A stretch of 64,000 bases of DNA from Escherichia phage Ec_YwIITB1. Positions 3,778-63,312 of this stretch are shown here, piece after piece (the stretch's first letter is position 1; every line of letters starts with the position of its first letter). A program made the position numbers and the translations under genes. The notes below the pieces were generated by a model. The model did not search any database. It was not told where the DNA came from and saw nothing but the letters and a program-made list of their open reading frames with translations. The stretch lies in sequence record PQ356294.1. One strand, given 5' to 3'.

Positions 3778-3807
3778 ATAATACCACAGTCCTTGCGGTA
3801 TGTAAAC
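3778..3807 (-). promoter_or_regulatory. T4-type early promoter
   Basis: Minus-strand GTTTAC...(18 nt)...TATTAT then GGAGGAG SD. Confidence 0.6.
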
Positions 3808-3823
3808 CATTTTGTGAAATTTT

Positions 3824-4381
3824 TTAAATGGAAAGATACCATCCGTTGTAGTTGCTTTTTCTTACAACCTTACGAAGGTCTTCTCTATCACCGATGAACT
3901 TCGGAGTGTACTGGATGACACCTGGATGAATTTCTTTAGTGTTGAATATAATTATACAGTCAGCGACCTGATGATTCAGAATGGGCCCTAGATTTATTCC
4001 AGAACCGTATGGATACTCTCCGCTGCATCCTGTTGTTACAGAAATCCAACGTGAGTCAGTTTGATGTGTCTTAACTTCTACACGAAGCCCGCAGTATCTT
4101 GGATGCGCCAATACATCCCATGCGTATGTATACGGGTCATTAACATCCTCTTGGCCTTTGTTAACATACCCGCTTAGCCAATCTGCTACAAAAAACTCTG
4201 CGTACACCGCGATACGGCATCTTTCAATGACTTCTGCTTTATCCTGATTAGGATTTTGTTTTAAAGAGTATCTTGCTGTATCAGCAATTTTGACCTTCAT
4301 TTCACTAGTCAAGTCACTGTTCGATAGGGTAAATGTCGGAATCTGAAATAGTCTCTGTAAACCCGGATTCGTTTTCTGCAT
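3824..4381 (-). CDS. denB: endonuclease IV (DenB)-like protein
   Basis: 185-aa ORF in the denB position upstream of rIIB; length equals T4 DenB as recalled. Confidence 0.65.
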   Translation of the reverse strand: MQKTNPGLQRLFQIPTFTLSNSDLTSEMKVKIADTARYSLKQNPNQDKAEVIERCRIAVYAEFFVADWLSGYVNKGQEDVNDPYTYAWDVLAHPRYCGLRVEVKTHQTDSRWISVTTGCSGEYPYGSGINLGPILNHQVADCIIIFNTKEIHPGVIQYTPKFIGDREDLRKVVRKSNYNGWYLSI

Positions 4382-5848: not shown

Positions 5849-8026
5849 TTAGGCCGCAAGGGCCTTCATAGTTTTAGCGATTTGGGAAACTTCATCATCA
5901 CTTAAAGAGTTGCGATAACCGATGAAGTCGGAAACAATACGGAATTTCTTGGTAAACTCAGCAACCATTTTATCACTGTTTTTTGAAGCATTATATGATA
6001 GTGTTTCAAAAAGATTAGTTACTGTCCAGATGTCATGACCGATGGTATCTTTTCCACCGTTGAAATATATCCCCCGCAATGAACTAACCATATTACCGAG
6101 TCGTGTATATTCTTCGGAAACTTCATCTGTACTGAAGTACTTCATCATAAAATCTAATTCAGGATACTTGATAATTTTATCAATATATCGTTGAGCTGAA
6201 CTTGAATAACCTACGTACTTATCATAATCTACATCATCAAAAGCATCTACATATAAATCACGCAGAGTTTCAAAAATACATTGGCACTGACCAAGTTCTT
6301 TTACCTTTTTCTGCAAAAGCGGACGAATAACATAAAATTCATTAATGCCAATAAGATTAGCCATACGAGTCAAAATACTTGTAGATGGATTACAAAGCGA
6401 TGTAGTACCATCCATAGAGAAAATATCAGAACGATGCATATATGCTACGTAACCAGTAATTTCATCTGCTTCTGATGTGAGTGTAAACAGTTCCTCTTTT
6501 TCCCAGCGTCCGTCTTTAATTTCAAACTTAAATGCAGTAGCAGCTTTAGGACGAGGAGCTTTACTTTTAACTACCTTTGGAATATAACTTTTAACTAAAG
6601 CTTCAATTTCTGACAAATAATGAATGTTAACTTCATCACTTTCAAACATTGCCATAATATCAGGGAGTAAATCAATCTGTGATTCTACTTCCGGATTAAT
6701 AAACAGAAGACGCTCATTATGATGAATATTCAAAGTGTTGTTAAATTCTTTATCATCTAATGCATGCGCTAATCCACGGACAATATTAACACGATTTTTA
6801 ATATTATCAATAACAATATTAATTTTTGTTGTATTAATACCAAACAGACGATAACTTGATGCAATGGCCGAAGTTTCATGACTTTGCTTAATGCGTTTCA
6901 GTCGAGGGTCAAGATTTACTTCATACACAACTCCTGCATTACATAACTTACTGTCAGGTTCAAACATGCTTTGCATCTTTTTATATGACAGATTTTTAGT
7001 CGTAAATTTGACTGAATTACTAATCATATAATCTCGAGCAGAATATCCCATCTTCATCAATTCACGGTATGTATGACGAGGAGATGTAGATTCTTTAAAT
7101 CGTTTTACATCTTCATTGAATGCCTTCTCACTAAGCTCTTTAACACGCTCAATAATATTTTTACGAGTACGATCATCCAATGAAAGAGCTTCGCGTGATG
7201 GAGCAATATCCAGTGAACCCATTGGAAACTTAATGTAATTCACTTCATTGCGGATGCTTAACCAGTTACGGTCTCTAATAACACCATCAATAGGATAAAC
7301 AATACCACCATAGATAGCATATAATCCACCGCGATCTAGCCAATATCTTTCTGGATTTACACCGTAATAGTCATCAAAATCCGGAAAATAATCAATTTCG
7401 CGGTCAAGACCATTAATGATAGCCAAATCTTTGAATGGTCGCATGATATAAGAAACTTCATAAGCAAAGTTTCTAAAGTCCTTTTCTTCAACTGGAACTA
7501 CGATTTCAATACCAGTTTTATCATTTGGACCCATTTCTTTTACGAATGTAGGTTTAATTTGCGGACCATCACCATCCATGTAAGCTACATAACCGCGAAT
7601 TTCACCTTTATGATACGAAGTAATACTAAATGTATCAGTATAGCTAAACGGAGATTTAGAACCTAAACCAAATCCGCCAATGAAATCGTTAGATTCAGCC
7701 TTAGATGAACTGAAGTATGAATTATACAGCCCAGGAGAATTATCATCACCCTGAATATCAAAATCGCTCATACCCGGACCAAAATCTCGGCAAACAAATC
7801 GCGGATCTAATCGTCCTGGAACTTGAATGATAAATTTTTCATGATTTCCATTGAGAGCATGGGCGTCAATCATGTTGGTAATCAATTCACGGACTACTGC
7901 GCGAATCTTGTTTGTATACAAATCAGATGATAGAATTTTAAATACTTTAGGATTTGCTGCGATGCTAAATGCTTTTGATTTAGAACCATTACCAAGAATT
8001 GTTTCTTTTTCAGTGGTGATAATCAT
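5849..8026 (-). CDS. rIIA: rIIA protein
   Basis: 725-aa ORF (T4 rIIA length) with GHKL-ATPase-like N-terminal region; classic rIIA-rIIB adjacency. Confidence 0.92.
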
Positions 8027-54301: not shown

Positions 54302-54829
54302 TTATGCGAGTACCGTCTTTAACCGTTCTTCAAACTTCCGAAGAGTATTTTGGCGTTCAGCTCTTTGCTTTTTGTAAGTTTCAATACGCTCTGAAATGAG
54401 AGTGTATCGTTCATTTACCGATTCTTTCATAAAATCAGGAATTTCACGAGAAGCTTTAATCTCGTCAAATTTATCAATAACAGCTTGCTCTTCAGCAATT
54501 AAATTATCATACATTAAAATATCTTTCTTGATGAACTCAATATCTTCTTGAGTTACACGAGATAATTTAGATGCTTTATCCTTTTTGTACTGTTTATTAG
54601 TATCACGAGACCAGTGCAATGTACGATTTTTATTCGTATTTTTGTAAATTTCTACAATACCGATCTCATCAATAATAACGATCCAATTCCAACGGGATTT
54701 GTAAATTTGTCCTCCATCAACAGTGATTTCACCTCCGATTGAGATGTCGTTAAAGAACTTGCTTTGTGCTTCAGATTTAAATTTACCATCGTTGTAATTT
54801 ACCAAGTTGAAAATATCTTTAGCGTTCAT
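54302..54829 (-). CDS. hypothetical protein (175 aa)
   Basis: First gene downstream of the early promoter at about 54857..54887. Confidence 0.55.
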   Translation of the reverse strand: MNAKDIFNLVNYNDGKFKSEAQSKFFNDISIGGEITVDGGQIYKSRWNWIVIIDEIGIVEIYKNTNKNRTLHWSRDTNKQYKKDKASKLSRVTQEDIEFIKKDILMYDNLIAEEQAVIDKFDEIKASREIPDFMKESVNERYTLISERIETYKKQRAERQNTLRKFEERLKTVLA

Positions 54830-57850: not shown

Positions 57851-58372
57851 TTATCCTTTCATTGAAGGTGTAACAGTTGTTAAATACTTAATCATAGCTT
57901 CAGCTTCTGATTTTGATAATGAAATTTCTCCATTGTTTTGACGAATAGAAATAAAATCCGGATGACGGTCACCACCAGCTTTTAAAATACACATATAAGT
58001 ATCAGTTTCATCTTCAATATCTGAAATAATTGAAGCAGTTCCACATGAATGTGGTTTTTGATAAATCAATGCAGCTTTTCTTCCACCGTTTGACTGTTCA
58101 TAAACTTTTAACACATCAAACAAATCGCTTCTTTTATCAATAGCTAAGATGTTGTTTTCATCTTCAATATTAAATCCTTCGGATACTTCATAAAGTGTCA
58201 CCCATAAATCACCTATATCGATAGTAGCATTTCCTTTTCCACGACTTTCAAGAATATGACAAATTTTCTTGATTTCGTCATAACTCATTTTAATAATATC
58301 ATCTCCTTGAATAAGGAAGATGTCATTTTTAAATTCAACACGAATTAAACCACTTCCACTTGAAATAAACAT
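57851..58372 (-). CDS. hypothetical protein (173 aa), paralog A
   Basis: C-terminal motif EAEAMIKYLTTVTPSM shared with the next ORF. Confidence 0.5.
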   Translation of the reverse strand: MFISSGSGLIRVEFKNDIFLIQGDDIIKMSYDEIKKICHILESRGKGNATIDIGDLWVTLYEVSEGFNIEDENNILAIDKRSDLFDVLKVYEQSNGGRKAALIYQKPHSCGTASIISDIEDETDTYMCILKAGGDRHPDFISIRQNNGEISLSKSEAEAMIKYLTTVTPSMKG

Positions 58373-58378
58373 ATTTCC

Positions 58379-58933
58379 TCACTTTGAAATCATAGTTGGA
58401 ATGACAGAATCGAGATAAGTCTTTAGCGCAATAGCTTCGTCTTTGGTAAATGTGACAATATGCGATCGAAAATCATCAATTTGACGAATAGTTAAGACAT
58501 CACCATCTTCATAGCATTTTGATATGTTTAAAACAGTTTCATCATTCTGATTGCAAGCGTTAGTAATAATAGCATTGCAATTTTTGAGCCATTTTAAACT
58601 ATGTTTTCTTTCATTAGAATAATAAAAATATTTAATCTTATCTATAAAACTATCCCAATGAATAACTGATAGGCATATTGACTCACTTTTAATATTAAAT
58701 CCTGGGCATGAAGAATAAAAATGAATTTTGTGCTCATCATTGATGCTTACTATTTTATCAGTATAAGGATATTCAATTTGGGTTAAATGAATGATTTCAC
58801 TAGGCGTAAAATATAGCATATCGTCTTCTTGCGTCAAACGATACATATTATTTACTTTTTCTATAGCTAATTCACCAAAAAGCGGACTAACTTCTAATAC
58901 TAATCGTTTCATATTAATCCTTTTTATTGGCAT
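58379..58933 (-). CDS. hypothetical protein (184 aa), paralog B
   Basis: C-terminal motif EAIALKTYLDSVIPTM. Confidence 0.5.
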   Translation of the reverse strand: MPIKRINMKRLVLEVSPLFGELAIEKVNNMYRLTQEDDMLYFTPSEIIHLTQIEYPYTDKIVSINDEHKIHFYSSCPGFNIKSESICLSVIHWDSFIDKIKYFYYSNERKHSLKWLKNCNAIITNACNQNDETVLNISKCYEDGDVLTIRQIDDFRSHIVTFTKDEAIALKTYLDSVIPTMISK

Positions 58934-59192
58934 GAATTTGTTTTAAAATTTTAGAGTATTCCTTTGTATCAGATTTACGTACAATCGATACACTATAAGG
59001 CATACTATCTGTGTCTTTTATAAAACGTTCCAAATGACACTCTAACAAAATTTCTGGATTATAAATCGTGTACATCAAATTACCTGTTGCTCCACGATAT
59101 TGGCAGATTTCTACTGATTGAGCATCATTCCACAATTTTGTTAAGACTAAATCACCTACTTCTAATTTCGGAAAGCTCACATTATTCACCAA
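58914..59192 (-). CDS. hypothetical protein (92 aa)
   Basis: Minus-strand ORF. Confidence 0.45.
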   Translation of the reverse strand: MVNNVSFPKLEVGDLVLTKLWNDAQSVEICQYRGATGNLMYTIYNPEILLECHLERFIKDTDSMPYSVSIVRKSDTKEYSKILKQIHANKKD

Positions 59193-59367
59193 TTAAAGTT
59201 TCAATATAAGAATCAAGATTTACTTTAGCTTCTTCCATAAGAGTTTTGTATTTAATCTTGTTAGCATATCCAGAGAAAGCTGATTCATCAATAACTGTTG
59301 ATGTATGAACAGCTTTACTATACATCTCAATTAATTCTCTTAATTTAAAAGCCTGCTCACTTGTCAT
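59182..59367 (-). CDS. small helical protein (61 aa), member of a approx. 60-aa paralog family
   Basis: N-terminal SxEQ...L and C-terminal ...YIETL motifs. Confidence 0.5.
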   Translation of the reverse strand: MTSEQAFKLRELIEMYSKAVHTSTVIDESAFSGYANKIKYKTLMEEAKVNLDSYIETLIGE

Positions 59368-59499
59368 TACATACTCCTTTGAATAATATCAATAATGTTG
59401 TTCACCAGATTATAAGTAAACATTGGATAATTATATTGAATCATCACATACACAACAAACAAAACTTTCATTCTCTTCTCCTTGACAGTTGACAAGATT

Positions 59500-59529
59500 A
59501 CTATACCATAACCTTGCCAACTTGTAAAC
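59500..59529 (-). promoter_or_regulatory. early promoter
   Basis: Minus-strand GTTTACaagttggcaaggttatggTATAGT. Confidence 0.5.
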
Positions 59530-59694
59530 CATTAAATGACGTTTTCAATAAAATTCTGAAGCTTTGTGTGAGCATCAACCATGATTTTCATTTCTTCCTT
59601 TGCGAAAGCTGTACCTCTTTCCCGAGCAGAATACTCATAATCAGAAACTGCATTAGCATATTCTTCAATTAGCTTCATTAAAAACATCTGCTTT

Positions 59695-59889
59695 TCAGTT
59701 TTCATTATTCCACCTAATCATTTCAAGATATTGAACTAACTTAGCTTTGGATTTATCCAAATCCTTTTTAGCTGCTTCTATACCATCGTATGAATATCCT
59801 TCACAATGCTCAACTGCCAATTGGTATGAATCTATTTCAATATCACGTGCTAATTTAATGATTTTTTCAAACTGTTCACGTGTTAGCAT
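59695..59889 (-). CDS. small helical protein (64 aa), paralog family member
   Basis: MLTREQFEKIIKLA...LVQYLEMI. Confidence 0.5.
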   Translation of the reverse strand: MLTREQFEKIIKLARDIEIDSYQLAVEHCEGYSYDGIEAAKKDLDKSKAKLVQYLEMIRWNNEN

Positions 59890-59891
59890 AC

Positions 59892-60131
59892 TTAAACTCT
59901 CGTATTATGATCGATAATTTCATCAAGAAACATATCTAAAGCTTCTACAGCATTATCAACTTTAGCTTCAAGTTCTTCAGCACCTTTATTTGCAATGCCC
60001 GACGAAAACCAAGCAAAGTCACTAAGTTCCTCATCTGCTTTGCGAATTAAAGCTACCAATTCTTTAATTTTATCTGCTTGTTCAATGCTAATCATTATTC
60101 CACCACATATGAAAGAGAGAATATTGCACAC
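59892..60131 (-). CDS. small helical protein (79 aa), paralog family member
   Basis: ...[14 protein letters not shown]...[11 protein letters not shown]. Confidence 0.5.
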
Positions 60132-60280
60132 GCCATATGAGTTGCAGCTTCATCACACATATCATAACGTTTCTTAAGAAGTTCTACAAGTTCTTCACTA
60201 GTAACTTCATCCATGTCGACGAAAAAATCACCATTAATGATGACGTAGATATTTCCTTCTTGATTGAGTGCTTCAATTTT
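60095..60280 (-). CDS. hypothetical small protein (61 aa); start re-set
   Basis: ATG at 60280 ([10 protein letters not shown]...) after GAGGAGA SD; track start lies in the promoter. Confidence 0.45.
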
Positions 60281-60310
60281 CATGATGTTCTCCTCTTTAT
60301 CCGATGGTTG

Positions 60311-60341
60311 TATAGTATCACAGCTCAAATTGAAAGTAAAC
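60311..60341 (-). promoter_or_regulatory. early promoter
   Basis: Minus-strand GTTTAC...TACTATAC then GAGGAGA SD. Confidence 0.55.
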
Positions 60342-60356
60342 CGGTAAAATGAAAAA

Positions 60357-60374
60357 AGTCTCCCGAAGGAGACT
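60357..60374 (-). terminator. intrinsic terminator downstream of the rI operon
   Basis: AGUCUCCUUCGGGAGACU followed by UUUUUU. Confidence 0.7.
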
Positions 60375-60378
60375 AATG

Positions 60379-60765
60379 TTATTCGAGTGAAAGAAGATAT
60401 TTGCTCTGGTAAAACATCCCAGTGATATCATCTATCGTGCTTTGAATGGCTGGAGGCATTTCTTTATAAATGCTGTTAGATTGATCTAGTATGTGATCAA
60501 TCATTTTAATTGTATCGGTAGGAAGTTTACTGGCGTCTGGAATAGAAGGCGTGTATTTTCTACCAGAATACCCTAAATATTGCTCACCAAATTTATCAAT
60601 CAAATCTGGCAATTCAGAGAAAATAAAATCGTATGCTTTGTGTCTAGCATAACTTTTAGTTTCAAAATGTGCAGAATGAAAATAAGCTTGTGCAGCCATT
60701 AATAAACCTAAGTATTCATCTGCCTTTGAAGGTTTTCCACTTTGTGAAAAGTCGCTGAATTTCAT
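60379..60765 (-). CDS. rI.-1: rI.-1-like protein
   Basis: 128-aa ORF immediately downstream of rI. Confidence 0.55.
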
Positions 60766-61055
60766 TCAGTCTCCAATTTAATGTTCATAATTCTAGCGTA
60801 TGATTGTGCCATCTCCGCGCCTCGCTCTATACATTCAAAATCGGAAGAGCACGGGTCATTTTTATAAGTCGTTCGCATAAAACTATAGAACTGTTCAGAT
60901 GATTCTACGCTTTTATTTTCAAAAAGCATATAAACGTGTCTAATACCAGATTCCATAAATTTATCAAAATGAAGATCGACATTCGCTTCAATTGGTGGAG
61001 ATAAAGCAAATGCTAATCCTAGCATGGCAAATAGTGCCGTTGCTTTTAAGGCCAT
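60762..61055 (-). CDS. rI: lysis inhibition regulator rI
   Basis: 97-aa ORF MALKATALFAMLGLAFALSPPIEA... with signal-anchor; matches T4 RI as recalled. Confidence 0.88.
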   Translation of the reverse strand: MALKATALFAMLGLAFALSPPIEANVDLHFDKFMESGIRHVYMLFENKSVESSEQFYSFMRTTYKNDPCSSDFECIERGAEMAQSYARIMNIKLETE

Positions 61056-61067
61056 AAAGGCCTCCTA

Positions 61068-61280
61068 TCATTTTTGTCCTGTATTTACTTTATGCCGATG
61101 CACGGCCTTAACTTTATCAAGGTATTTTTCAAAATTTCGCAATCTAGTATAGTCTGCCGGAGATTGGTTGAGTGATACTTCTCGACGCAAAGCTGAAATG
61201 ATATTTCCAACTTCCCTACGAATTTCATCTAATTGAAGAACAGTAAGATTGCGAAGTTGCTTTTCAGTTAATTGTAGCAT
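61068..61280 (-). CDS. rI.1: rI.1-like protein
   Basis: 70-aa ORF between tk and rI. Confidence 0.55.
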
Positions 61281-61322
61281 ATATACCCCTTTAGTTAGAT
61301 AAACCTATTTATAACTTTTGCA

Positions 61323-61904
61323 CTAACCAAGCTTTTTAGTTAATTCATTCCAATGTTTTCTACACAAAGAAACATAAATTTCATCACCAATACAGATTTG
61401 ATTACCTTCTTTAACTGGCGTTCCATCTTCCATTAATCGAGCTGTCATAATAGCTTTTTTACCACAATGACAAACTGCTTTTAGTTCAATAAGTTTATCT
61501 GCAATCGCCAAAAGTTCTTTAGAACCTTCAAATAATTTTCCAGCGAAATCAGTCCTTAGTCCATAAGCCATAACAGGAACATTATATGTATCGACAATTC
61601 GGCTTAATTGATGCACCTGTTCAGTTTTTAAAAACTGGGCTTCATCTACAAATACACAATGAATATCTTTTTGTGCTTCAGCCCATTTATAGAACTCAAA
61701 AATATCCATATCATCCGTAATAATATTCGCTTCCTGCTTAATTCCAATGCGAGAAACGACTTCACAGACAGAATCACGAGTATCAATAGCAGGCTTAAGA
61801 ACTAATACACCCATTCCGCGTTCTTTATAATTATGCGCAGCAGTCAAAAGAGAAGCAGATTTTCCAGCATTCATTGCTGCGTAAGTAAAAATTAAACTCG
61901 CCAT
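61323..61904 (-). CDS. tk: thymidine kinase
   Basis: 193-aa ORF with P-loop (AAMNAGKS) and C-terminal Zn-binding CxxC pairs; T4 Tk length. Confidence 0.92.
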   Translation of the reverse strand: MASLIFTYAAMNAGKSASLLTAAHNYKERGMGVLVLKPAIDTRDSVCEVVSRIGIKQEANIITDDMDIFEFYKWAEAQKDIHCVFVDEAQFLKTEQVHQLSRIVDTYNVPVMAYGLRTDFAGKLFEGSKELLAIADKLIELKAVCHCGKKAIMTARLMEDGTPVKEGNQICIGDEIYVSLCRKHWNELTKKLG

Positions 61905-61905
61905 C

Positions 61906-62094
61906 TTAGTCCTTAGTTAAATTTTCTAAATATGTTTCTAAATCATTTTCAGCTTTATCGATAGATTTTACTAATTCGTAATATGTTTCGGCATCTCCGT
62001 ATTCAGAAGATATTTCAAAAGACAAATCCTTTTCTAAACTAATAATTTCACCAACTAAAAATAATATTTCGTTCTTTTGTTCGCGAGTAATCAT
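61906..62094 (-). CDS. small helical protein (62 aa), paralog family member
   Basis: MITREQKNEILFLV...LETYLENL. Confidence 0.5.
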   Translation of the reverse strand: MITREQKNEILFLVGEIISLEKDLSFEISSEYGDAETYYELVKSIDKAENDLETYLENLTKD

Positions 62095-62276
62095 AAGGAA
62101 TTTATATAATTAATAAGTTCTTGTTCTTTATCGTCGAAATCTTTACACAGTTCTTCGTATTCGTCGGTATTAAAAGGACCGCATTCATCACAAACTTTTT
62201 CCAATTCGCTATTTTTATCCATAACTTCGTGAATAAGAGAAAATAGTCTGTCTTTTTGTTCTTTGCTTAGGCTCAC
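62091..62276 (-). CDS. small helical protein (61 aa), paralog family member
   Basis: MSLSKEQKDRLFSLI...LINYINSL. Confidence 0.5.
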   Translation of the reverse strand: MSLSKEQKDRLFSLIHEVMDKNSELEKVCDECGPFNTDEYEELCKDFDDKEQELINYINSL

Positions 62277-62673: not shown

Positions 62674-62861
62674 TATTCTTCTACGTGCTGTTTACGACCT
62701 TTCTTATCAATAAAGGTATATTCAACGAATGTTCCAATATAGTCTTTATCTACACCATGCGGACTATTAATTGGACATTTAGTACGGCAAATGCGTTCCC
62801 ATTGACGAATAATTTCCACTTTGTTTTTAGGATCAAACGGATGCGGGTAATGTACTTTCAT
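62649..62861 (-). CDS. hypothetical protein (70 aa)
   Basis: Minus-strand ORF. Confidence 0.45.
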   Translation of the reverse strand: MKVHYPHPFDPKNKVEIIRQWERICRTKCPINSPHGVDKDYIGTFVEYTFIDKKGRKQHVEEYCLKVTWL

Positions 62862-63312
62862 AATCCACCACTATTAAATCAATATCAGGAGTAAACATGT
62901 CGATTAATTTAGAAACCTTATCCCAATCGCCGCCTGCAATACCACAACCGATACGTGGAATGTAAATTACTGGTTTAAACAAAAGGGTTTCTGCCTGTAG
63001 ATTTAATTCTATCATGCAGTTTACTAAAGCACCATAATCAAGATTAGGACCCGGTTCGTATTGTGTATACAAATTATAGCACATACTAAATCCTGTAGGA
63101 TTATGTTTAAAAACAATAGACATATCACCTAATTTATCACGAGAACCGTACTCGGTAGTGGTTTTATCTATTTCTAAAATTTTGGGATAGGCTCTTGCTA
63201 ATTGACCTGCTACGCCAGAGCCCATTGTGTGGAAGCAATTACACCCGTGCGCAATAATATTACCTTGAAGAAATAGGGCGACAATATCGCCCTTGATATA
63301 TTTTACAATCAT
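62833..63312 (-). CDS. macrodomain-like protein (TARG1/DarG-type signature)
   Basis: 159-aa ORF with KGDIV near the N-terminus and IAHGCNCFHTMGSGVAGQLA, resembling the TARG1/DarG macrodomain signature (GDLF...LAHCIS.D..MGAGIA). Confidence 0.55.
   Translation of the reverse strand: MIVKYIKGDIVALFLQGNIIAHGCNCFHTMGSGVAGQLARAYPKILEIDKTTTEYGSRDKLGDMSIVFKHNPTGFSMCYNLYTQYEPGPNLDYGALVNCMIELNLQAETLLFKPVIYIPRIGCGIAGGDWDKVSKLIDMFTPDIDLIVVDYESTLPASV

Follow-up and report, generated by a model that had tools for sequence, protein, structure and literature searches.

Although bacteriophage T4 serves as the reference phage, roughly half of its genes are without known function. Five of its small genes, tk.1, tk.2, mobD.2a, mobD.3 and mobD.4, together with RB14ncORF101c, belong to the Pfam family PF24219 (DUF7438), for which, as for its individual genes, no functional study was found in the literature. 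Here, we analysed a stretch of 64,000 nucleotides (nt) from Escherichia phage Ec_YwIITB1 (PQ356294.1), hereafter the window, in which orthologs of all six genes were found. They are the same genes of the same family: the orthologs are 78-100% identical, and neither their order nor their strand differs. Since both the family and its T4 members were already catalogued, the existence of these paralogs is not new. Compared with T4, the phage analysed here has the full set of six, whereas T4 is without the ORF101c member and its reference record shortens mobD.2a.

Several well-described proteins invite comparison with this family. AsiA, Dmd and Arn are small early T4 modulators of host proteins, and 55.2 is a small early T4 inhibitor of topoisomerase I (PMC4396842). 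Like the genes encoding them, the DUF7438 genes are small, early, non-essential ORFan-type genes located in variable T-even regions. However, those modulators have defined targets, none of them constitutes a six-copy paralog family, and no sequence or specific fold relationship to DUF7438 is known. The anti-CBASS sponge Acb2 (T4 Vs.4) is another small T-even protein that is mostly helical, and its gene lies a few kb from the family. Finally, Rop/Rom of ColE1 is a helical hairpin of 63 amino acids (aa) that forms a homodimeric four-helix bundle and binds RNA kissing complexes.

Homology and arrangement of the six DUF7438 genes

The window belongs to a Tequatrovirus (T4-like) genome, showing 95-98% identity to genomes such as those of Ec_MI-02, pSs-1 and T6, and all genes of the region lie on the minus strand. 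Gene names were assigned from the RB14 and T4 annotations. The family members are:

62091..62276, minus strand: tk.2 ortholog, 61 aa, GTG start, net charge -10; PF24219 E 1.8e-19, 70.3 bits
61906..62094, minus strand: tk.1 ortholog, 62 aa, net charge -10; PF24219 E 6.8e-15
59892..60095, minus strand: mobD.4 ortholog, 67 aa from the ATG at 60095, net charge -9; PF24219 E 1.5e-15
59695..59889, minus strand: mobD.3 ortholog, 64 aa; PF24219 E 1.5e-17
59532..59705, minus strand: mobD.2a ortholog, the sixth member, 57 aa; PF24219 E 3.5e-16; PHROG 2758
59182..59367, minus strand: RB14ncORF101c ortholog, 61 aa; PF24219 E 1.5e-14; PHROG 4859

An initial annotation, made by reading the sequence, had listed five of these open reading frames (ORFs), all of which proved to be real, and had suspected the sixth at about 59530..59706, which is real and lies at 59532-59705. 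The only correction to the five concerns mobD.4, given there as 59892..60131: its start is most likely the ATG at 60095 (MISIEQ...) and not the upstream GTG at 60131. The annotations of RB14 and T4 use this shorter form, and on the long form the Pfam match does not start until residue 14.

The six proteins match PF24219 with E values from 1.5e-14 to 1.8e-19 and scores of 54.5-70.3 bits, well above the curated gathering threshold of 25 bits, and in 6/6 proteins the match spans positions 1-56/57 of the 57-position model. All are single-domain proteins of 57-67 aa, within the size of DUF7438 proteins (about 55-70 aa). PHROGs divides them into three groups (653, 2758 and 4859), with cross-matches among the groups. 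Two motifs are shared, a T-x-E-Q close to the N-terminal end and a (D/E)x(Y/F)(L/I)Ex(L/I) towards the C-terminal end; both had been noticed in the initial annotation, although the spacing proposed there for the C-terminal one was off by one residue.

Pairwise identity among the six paralogs is only 17-31%, as might be expected if their similarity merely reflected Glu/Lys-rich helices, and a leave-one-out shuffle test was therefore run. A hidden Markov model (HMM) built from five members scored the sixth at 12.6-26.9 bits, and every sequence exceeded the best of about 500 composition-matched shuffles of itself (best shuffles, 7.5-14.8 bits). From the 704 stop-to-stop ORFs that have 35 aa or more in the window, a 35-sequence family HMM retrieved the six at E <= 8e-17, with no other ORF reaching a value lower than E 0.19, and a 6-sequence HMM found no further member either. 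No other helical ORF of the window scores; rI.1, a helical neighbour whose product begins with LTEKQ, gave no family match and was discarded as a member. Judged from their sequences, the six ORFs are true paralogs by homology and not by composition, because the Pfam scores, the shuffle test and the clean separation within the window all agree; the compositional explanation is thus refuted and retains next to no credibility. The window holds exactly six detectable members.

The genes had been described as dispersed, but they form two tight, partly overlapping tandem strings, tk.2-tk.1 and mobD.4-mobD.3-mobD.2a-(mobD.2)-ORF101c, separated by tk, rI.1, rI, rI.-1 and mobD.5. The start codon of tk.2 overlaps the stop of the gene upstream (GTGA), its stop overlaps the start of tk.1 (ATGA), and tk follows this string directly. 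In the second string, the 3' end of mobD.3 and the start of mobD.2a overlap by 11 nt, and the small mobD.2 ORF is placed between mobD.2a and the ORF101c ortholog. The product of tk.1 is identical (100%) to T4 Tk.1, that of mobD.3 is 97-100% identical to its T4 and RB14 counterparts, and that of tk.2 is 85-89% identical. For ORF101c, a counterpart was not found in the T4 stretch compared. In most Tequatroviruses, as in the window, MobD.2a has 57 aa, whereas the T4 RefSeq record (6050-6166 of the T4 stretch compared) gives it only 38 aa. For the T4 stock used in the HIDEN-SEQ study (bioRxiv 10.1101/2025.11.20.689424), the annotated gene has 174 nt. The short form may be a strain difference or a reference-sequence error.

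Predicted fold and names in the databases

AlphaFold2 monomer models, computed with family alignments for two of the six paralogs, are confident two-helix antiparallel hairpins, in keeping with the helical character proposed in the initial annotation: tk.2 folds into helices 5-31 and 37-60 with a predicted local distance difference test score (pLDDT) of 91, and the ORF101c ortholog into helices 3-28 and 34-60 with a pLDDT of 95.5. In an alignment of 37 family sequences, core columns spaced by 3-4 residues in both helices are 78-100% hydrophobic (heptad a/d), two packing columns carry small Ala/Ser residues, and the T, E and Q of the N-terminal T-x-E-Q are present in 76-86% of the sequences, with a spacing that resembles a helix N-capping box. 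Nearly all remaining columns are variable and rich in Asp/Glu. Thus, the scaffold is conserved whereas the predicted surface differs between members. The six proteins are hydrophilic and acidic, with isoelectric points of 4.2-5.3, net charges of -2 to -10, negative grand average of hydropathy values and no hydrophobic segment. Charge is unevenly distributed among them: tk.1, tk.2 and mobD.4 carry -9 to -10, and the other three paralogs only -2 to -3. Neither a basic patch nor a periodic acidic pattern is conserved across the paralogs in the 37-sequence alignment.

Comparisons with known proteins were uninformative. Foldseek returned no PDB match below E 0.39, sequence and profile comparison revealed no relationship to any PDB entry, and the best matches in BFVD were small uncharacterised proteins from other T4-like phages. 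A zinc site (CxxC) considered for tk.2 was rejected because the cysteines are absent from the Dhakavirus, Mosigvirus and PYPS2T alleles.

Several functional names have nevertheless become attached to these proteins, on records matching 59182-60095 of the window and on 6834-7001 of another compared stretch, and none of them, whether 'helicase loader', 'kilA', MobD or acb2, is backed by Pfam, NCBIfam or hhalign. 'Helicase loader' accompanies PHROG 4859 and some RefSeq records, and either this name or 'kilA' is given to ORF101c orthologs. A gp59-type helicase loader was ruled out: the T4 protein has about 217 aa, both the protein considered here and the PHROG profile have 61 aa, and a Pfam scan (E <= 1) yielded only DUF7438 and sub-threshold noise. 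The RefSeq name of mobD.4, 'molybdopterin-guanine dinucleotide biosynthesis protein MobD', was dismissed for want of any such Pfam or NCBIfam match, and most likely derives from a mix-up with the T4 gene symbol mobD, which denotes a homing endonuclease. Identity with Acb2 was also discarded, hhalign giving a probability of 0.1% against RB14 Vs.4 over 8 aligned columns; the name 'anti-CBASS protein acb2' on the DUF7438 member of Klebsiella phage Roth16 looks like a wrong annotation.

Distribution and variation among T-even phages

An exhaustive profile search of 1.84 billion representatives yielded only 38 clusters at E <= 1e-3, almost all of 57-67 aa. All named members come from Tevenvirinae, namely Tequatrovirus, Mosigvirus, Gaprivervirus, Dhakavirus, Karamvirus and Kanagawavirus, and the fold-defining residues are kept across these six genera and the 38 clusters at 50% identity. 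One distant member, on a metagenome contig (7203-7556), has 117 aa, with a C-terminal extension of about 55 residues past the hairpin, and adjoins a DUF4325 gene; it is the sole two-part architecture seen in the family. Near tk, six members were counted in RB14, five in T4 and five in PYPS2T (all Tequatrovirus), three in Dhakavirus, two each in Mosigvirus and Gaprivervirus, one in Klebsiella phage Roth16, and none in the stretches examined for Entb_43 (Karamvirus), Serratia PS2 and RB49.

Members of the family differ markedly in how often they are retained. Against a background of about 500 phage records whose tk is at least 95% identical to that of the window, mobD.2a, mobD.3 and mobD.4 are nearly universal, and ORF101c (192 records) and tk.1 (194 records) occur in roughly a third; tk.1 is regarded as accessory on account of this low count. 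The proposal that the region is accessory and variable is thereby borne out, gene content differing between near-identical phages. mobD.4 is highly polymorphic, with indels at the end of helix 1 and in the loop and an invariant C-terminal helix among 47 cluster representatives. tk.2 occurs in 741 records, of which just 167 have at least 80% identity and 573 carry a distant allele class, so that there are at least two classes. In Yersinia phage PYPS2T, tk is 100% identical to that of the window, tk.2 (3806-3991 of its stretch) is only 53% identical and tk.1 is missing, which places a very sharp mosaic boundary beside tk.

Pairwise ratios of nonsynonymous to synonymous substitution rates (dN/dS) against RB14 and T4 were 0-0.46, on small counts. 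As far as such ratios can tell, they indicate purifying selection accompanied by allele or cassette replacement, and not demonstrated positive selection. The earlier description of the family as diversifying is thus not supported in the sense of positive selection. The family is confined to T-even-type phages and expanded in Tequatrovirus, and its genes are gained, lost or swapped as cassettes among close relatives.

Two observations concern the genes next to the ORF101c ortholog. Directly downstream lies a 92-aa 'Phage tudor domain' protein gene (58914-59192, minus strand; PF24144, E 1.8e-39), for which, as for ORF101c, a counterpart was not found in the T4 stretch examined. Beyond it, two adjacent mobD.1-like ORFs (57851-58372 and 58379-58933, minus strand; 173 and 184 aa) are alike at the C-terminus (...EAEAMIKYLTTVTPSMKG and ...DEAIALKTYLDSVIPTMISK) and look like a second local paralog pair; RB14 labels one of the two 'similar to mobD.1'.

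Expression, dispensability and possible roles

Three putative regulatory elements were recognised around the mobD string:

60357..60374, minus strand: G+C-rich stem-loop followed by a T-run, located after rI.-1 (terminator scan: 7 pairs, then TTTTTT)
60312..60340, minus strand: predicted sigma-70-type early promoter, TTTACT, 17 nt, TACTAT, with TGn, read from the sequence
59500..59528, minus strand: promoter-like site, TTTACA, 17 nt, TATAGT, with TG; 10/12 consensus match

The site at 60312..60340, which scored below the scanner threshold, precedes mobD.5, the head of the mobD.5-mobD.4-mobD.3-mobD.2a string. By position, it would correspond to the T4 mobD.5 promoter, which is active early in infection and has served as a control (PMC1702504). 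Together with the stem-loop, it forms between rI.-1 and mobD.5 (60374-60312) a boundary that resembles the PeSL cassettes proposed as drivers of gene shuffling in T4-type phages (PMC2839356). The site at 59500..59528 is located upstream of mobD.2 and the ORF101c ortholog; to judge from their names, the T4 early promoters Pe57954 and Pe57.9 (PMC6024815) would lie at the equivalent position. In T4, early RNA was recorded for mobD.2a, mobD.3, mobD.4, tk.1 and tk.2, accompanied by early protein for mobD.3 and mobD.4, by middle protein for tk.1 and tk.2, and by no recorded protein for mobD.2a (PMC9697503, supplements).

The family is dispensable in T4 under the conditions reported. Mutants lacking the nrdC.11-mobD.3 fragment are viable (PMC9825161), and in the HIDEN-SEQ transposon study (bioRxiv 10.1101/2025.11.20.689424) tk.1, tk.2, mobD.2a, mobD.3 and mobD.4 were classified as 'Non-essential', transposons having hit 91-100% of their TA sites. 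This class was also assigned to the Bas37 genes 0211, 0212, 0213 and 0219 (88-100% of TA sites), which we equate by position and length with mobD.2a, mobD.3, mobD.4 and tk.2. That study also places anti-defence genes in the same region: tk.4 is AdfM, an anti-DarTG2 macrodomain, nrdC.1 inhibits Septu, and bas37_0203, equated with nrdC.8 by position and length only, inhibits Druantia III. The last gene, whose locus number resembles one in Bas47, was considered as a family member and rejected, being a 528-nt gene at the nrdC.8 position. In the window, the nrdC.8 ortholog (54305-54829, minus strand) is 98% identical to T4 NrdC.8. The macro-domain gene at the tk.4 position (62833-63312, minus strand) is only 58% identical to T4 and RB14 Tk.4, and the flanking vs and tk are 97-100% identical; given the function of T4 Tk.4, the phage therefore carries a deeply divergent counter-defence allele.

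These data are compatible with a tentative mechanism in which the six ORFs, five of them with expressed T4 orthologs, would encode soluble, acidic alpha-helical hairpins of about 60 residues, transcribed from the predicted early promoters in two translationally coupled strings. Each hairpin might act stoichiometrically as a small protein-binding module, probably pairing with itself, a paralog or a helix of its target and thereby completing a four-helix bundle. Early in infection, such a bundle would modulate or block a protein of the host or possibly of the phage, and the partners may differ between paralogs and alleles. To this reading, in which the family provides early accessory protein-binding modulators, we assign a rough probability of 0.4. 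The earlier proposal of host-takeover or anti-defence factors is plausible by context only, because no such activity is known for the family, and the T4 and Bas37 orthologs are non-essential and showed no significant change in the HIDEN-SEQ conditional tables covered here (one T4 comparison and two of the six Bas37 comparisons).

Several points weigh against a modulator role. Dimerisation is conjecture, as the AlphaFold2 models are of monomers only. In the conditional tables just mentioned, insertions in the T4 and Bas37 orthologs gave changes of -0.50 to +0.33 log2 with an adjusted p of 1, and no family gene is among the hits singled out by the authors. This null result fits redundancy or a requirement under other conditions, and equally fits a marginal function.

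Other explanations fit parts of the evidence. The proteins could be anti-restriction or anti-defence decoys whose acidic helices mimic nucleic acid and thereby titrate a defence protein that binds DNA, as Ocr, ArdA and T4 Arn do, and the -9 to -10 charge of tk.1, tk.2 and mobD.4 in about 62-67 residues, early expression and the anti-defence genes nearby agree with such DNA-mimic decoys. Nevertheless, the weak charge of the other three paralogs, the lack of a conserved periodic acidic pattern, the absence of a known mimic from the top structural matches and the absence of any phenotype, with hosts or with defence systems, from the conditional tables covered make this improbable. Regulators in the manner of Rop, which as homodimeric four-helix bundles would bind structured RNA or DNA and so tune gene expression in the phage or the host, seem a poor candidate as well: such a hairpin is a generic fold, the overall charge of the proteins is acidic with no basic patch conserved across paralogs, and identity with Rop/Rom was ruled out by an hhalign probability of 0.08% and by a PDB-profile search that returned no Rop chain at E <= 10.

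Two further explanations look away from the host. The proteins could be adaptors or chaperones for phage enzymes, with tk.2, for instance, serving thymidine kinase or the dNTP-synthesis machinery. Indeed, a tk.2-type gene lies directly upstream of tk in Tequatrovirus, Mosigvirus, Gaprivervirus, Dhakavirus and Klebsiella phage Roth16, and in the window tk directly follows the overlapping tk.2-tk.1 string. However, gene order is broadly kept in T4-like phages anyway, the other paralogs are unlinked to tk, and tk itself is non-essential (bioRxiv 10.1101/2025.11.20.689424). In addition, tk.2 alleles that are 47% different occur beside an identical tk, which argues against tight co-adaptation, and we consider a phage-internal role to have little chance of being correct. 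It could also be that the ORFs have no independent protein function and are hitch-hiking filler, or leaders that couple translation to downstream genes, as the lack of a phenotype in the transposon tables covered, the frequent loss among relatives and the truncated mobD.2a of the T4 reference record would allow. Purifying selection, the retention of fold-defining residues across genera and clusters, the detection of protein in T4 infection and the confident structural models speak against this explanation, and we hold it to be just as improbable as the others.

A bolder version of the modulator reading would see the hairpins as modules that form four-helix bundles in many combinations, by pairing with themselves and with one another. 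Every paralog or allele would neutralise its own immune or stress protein of the host, and redundancy would mask single-gene phenotypes. We regard it as unlikely, though slightly less so than the alternatives above; if it were true, an arms race with variable host targets would have left its footprints in the deep split between tk.2 alleles and in the hypervariable loop of mobD.4.

The present results chiefly confirm and tidy an existing Pfam family and flag several wrong database names. What they add is confirmation of the sixth copy, a distinction between fold-defining and variable positions, a survey of which members and allele classes are present or absent, a tie to expression and transposon data, and evidence against several of the names that these ORFs carry in databases. 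The picture that emerges is of one fold that each genome uses five or six times, in an accessory region among neighbours that act against DarTG2, Septu and, if bas37_0203 is equated with nrdC.8, Druantia III. If the hairpins do bind host factors, the family would offer a small group of natural inhibitors that are easy to test, and would be an example of the redundancy that single-gene transposon screens overlook.

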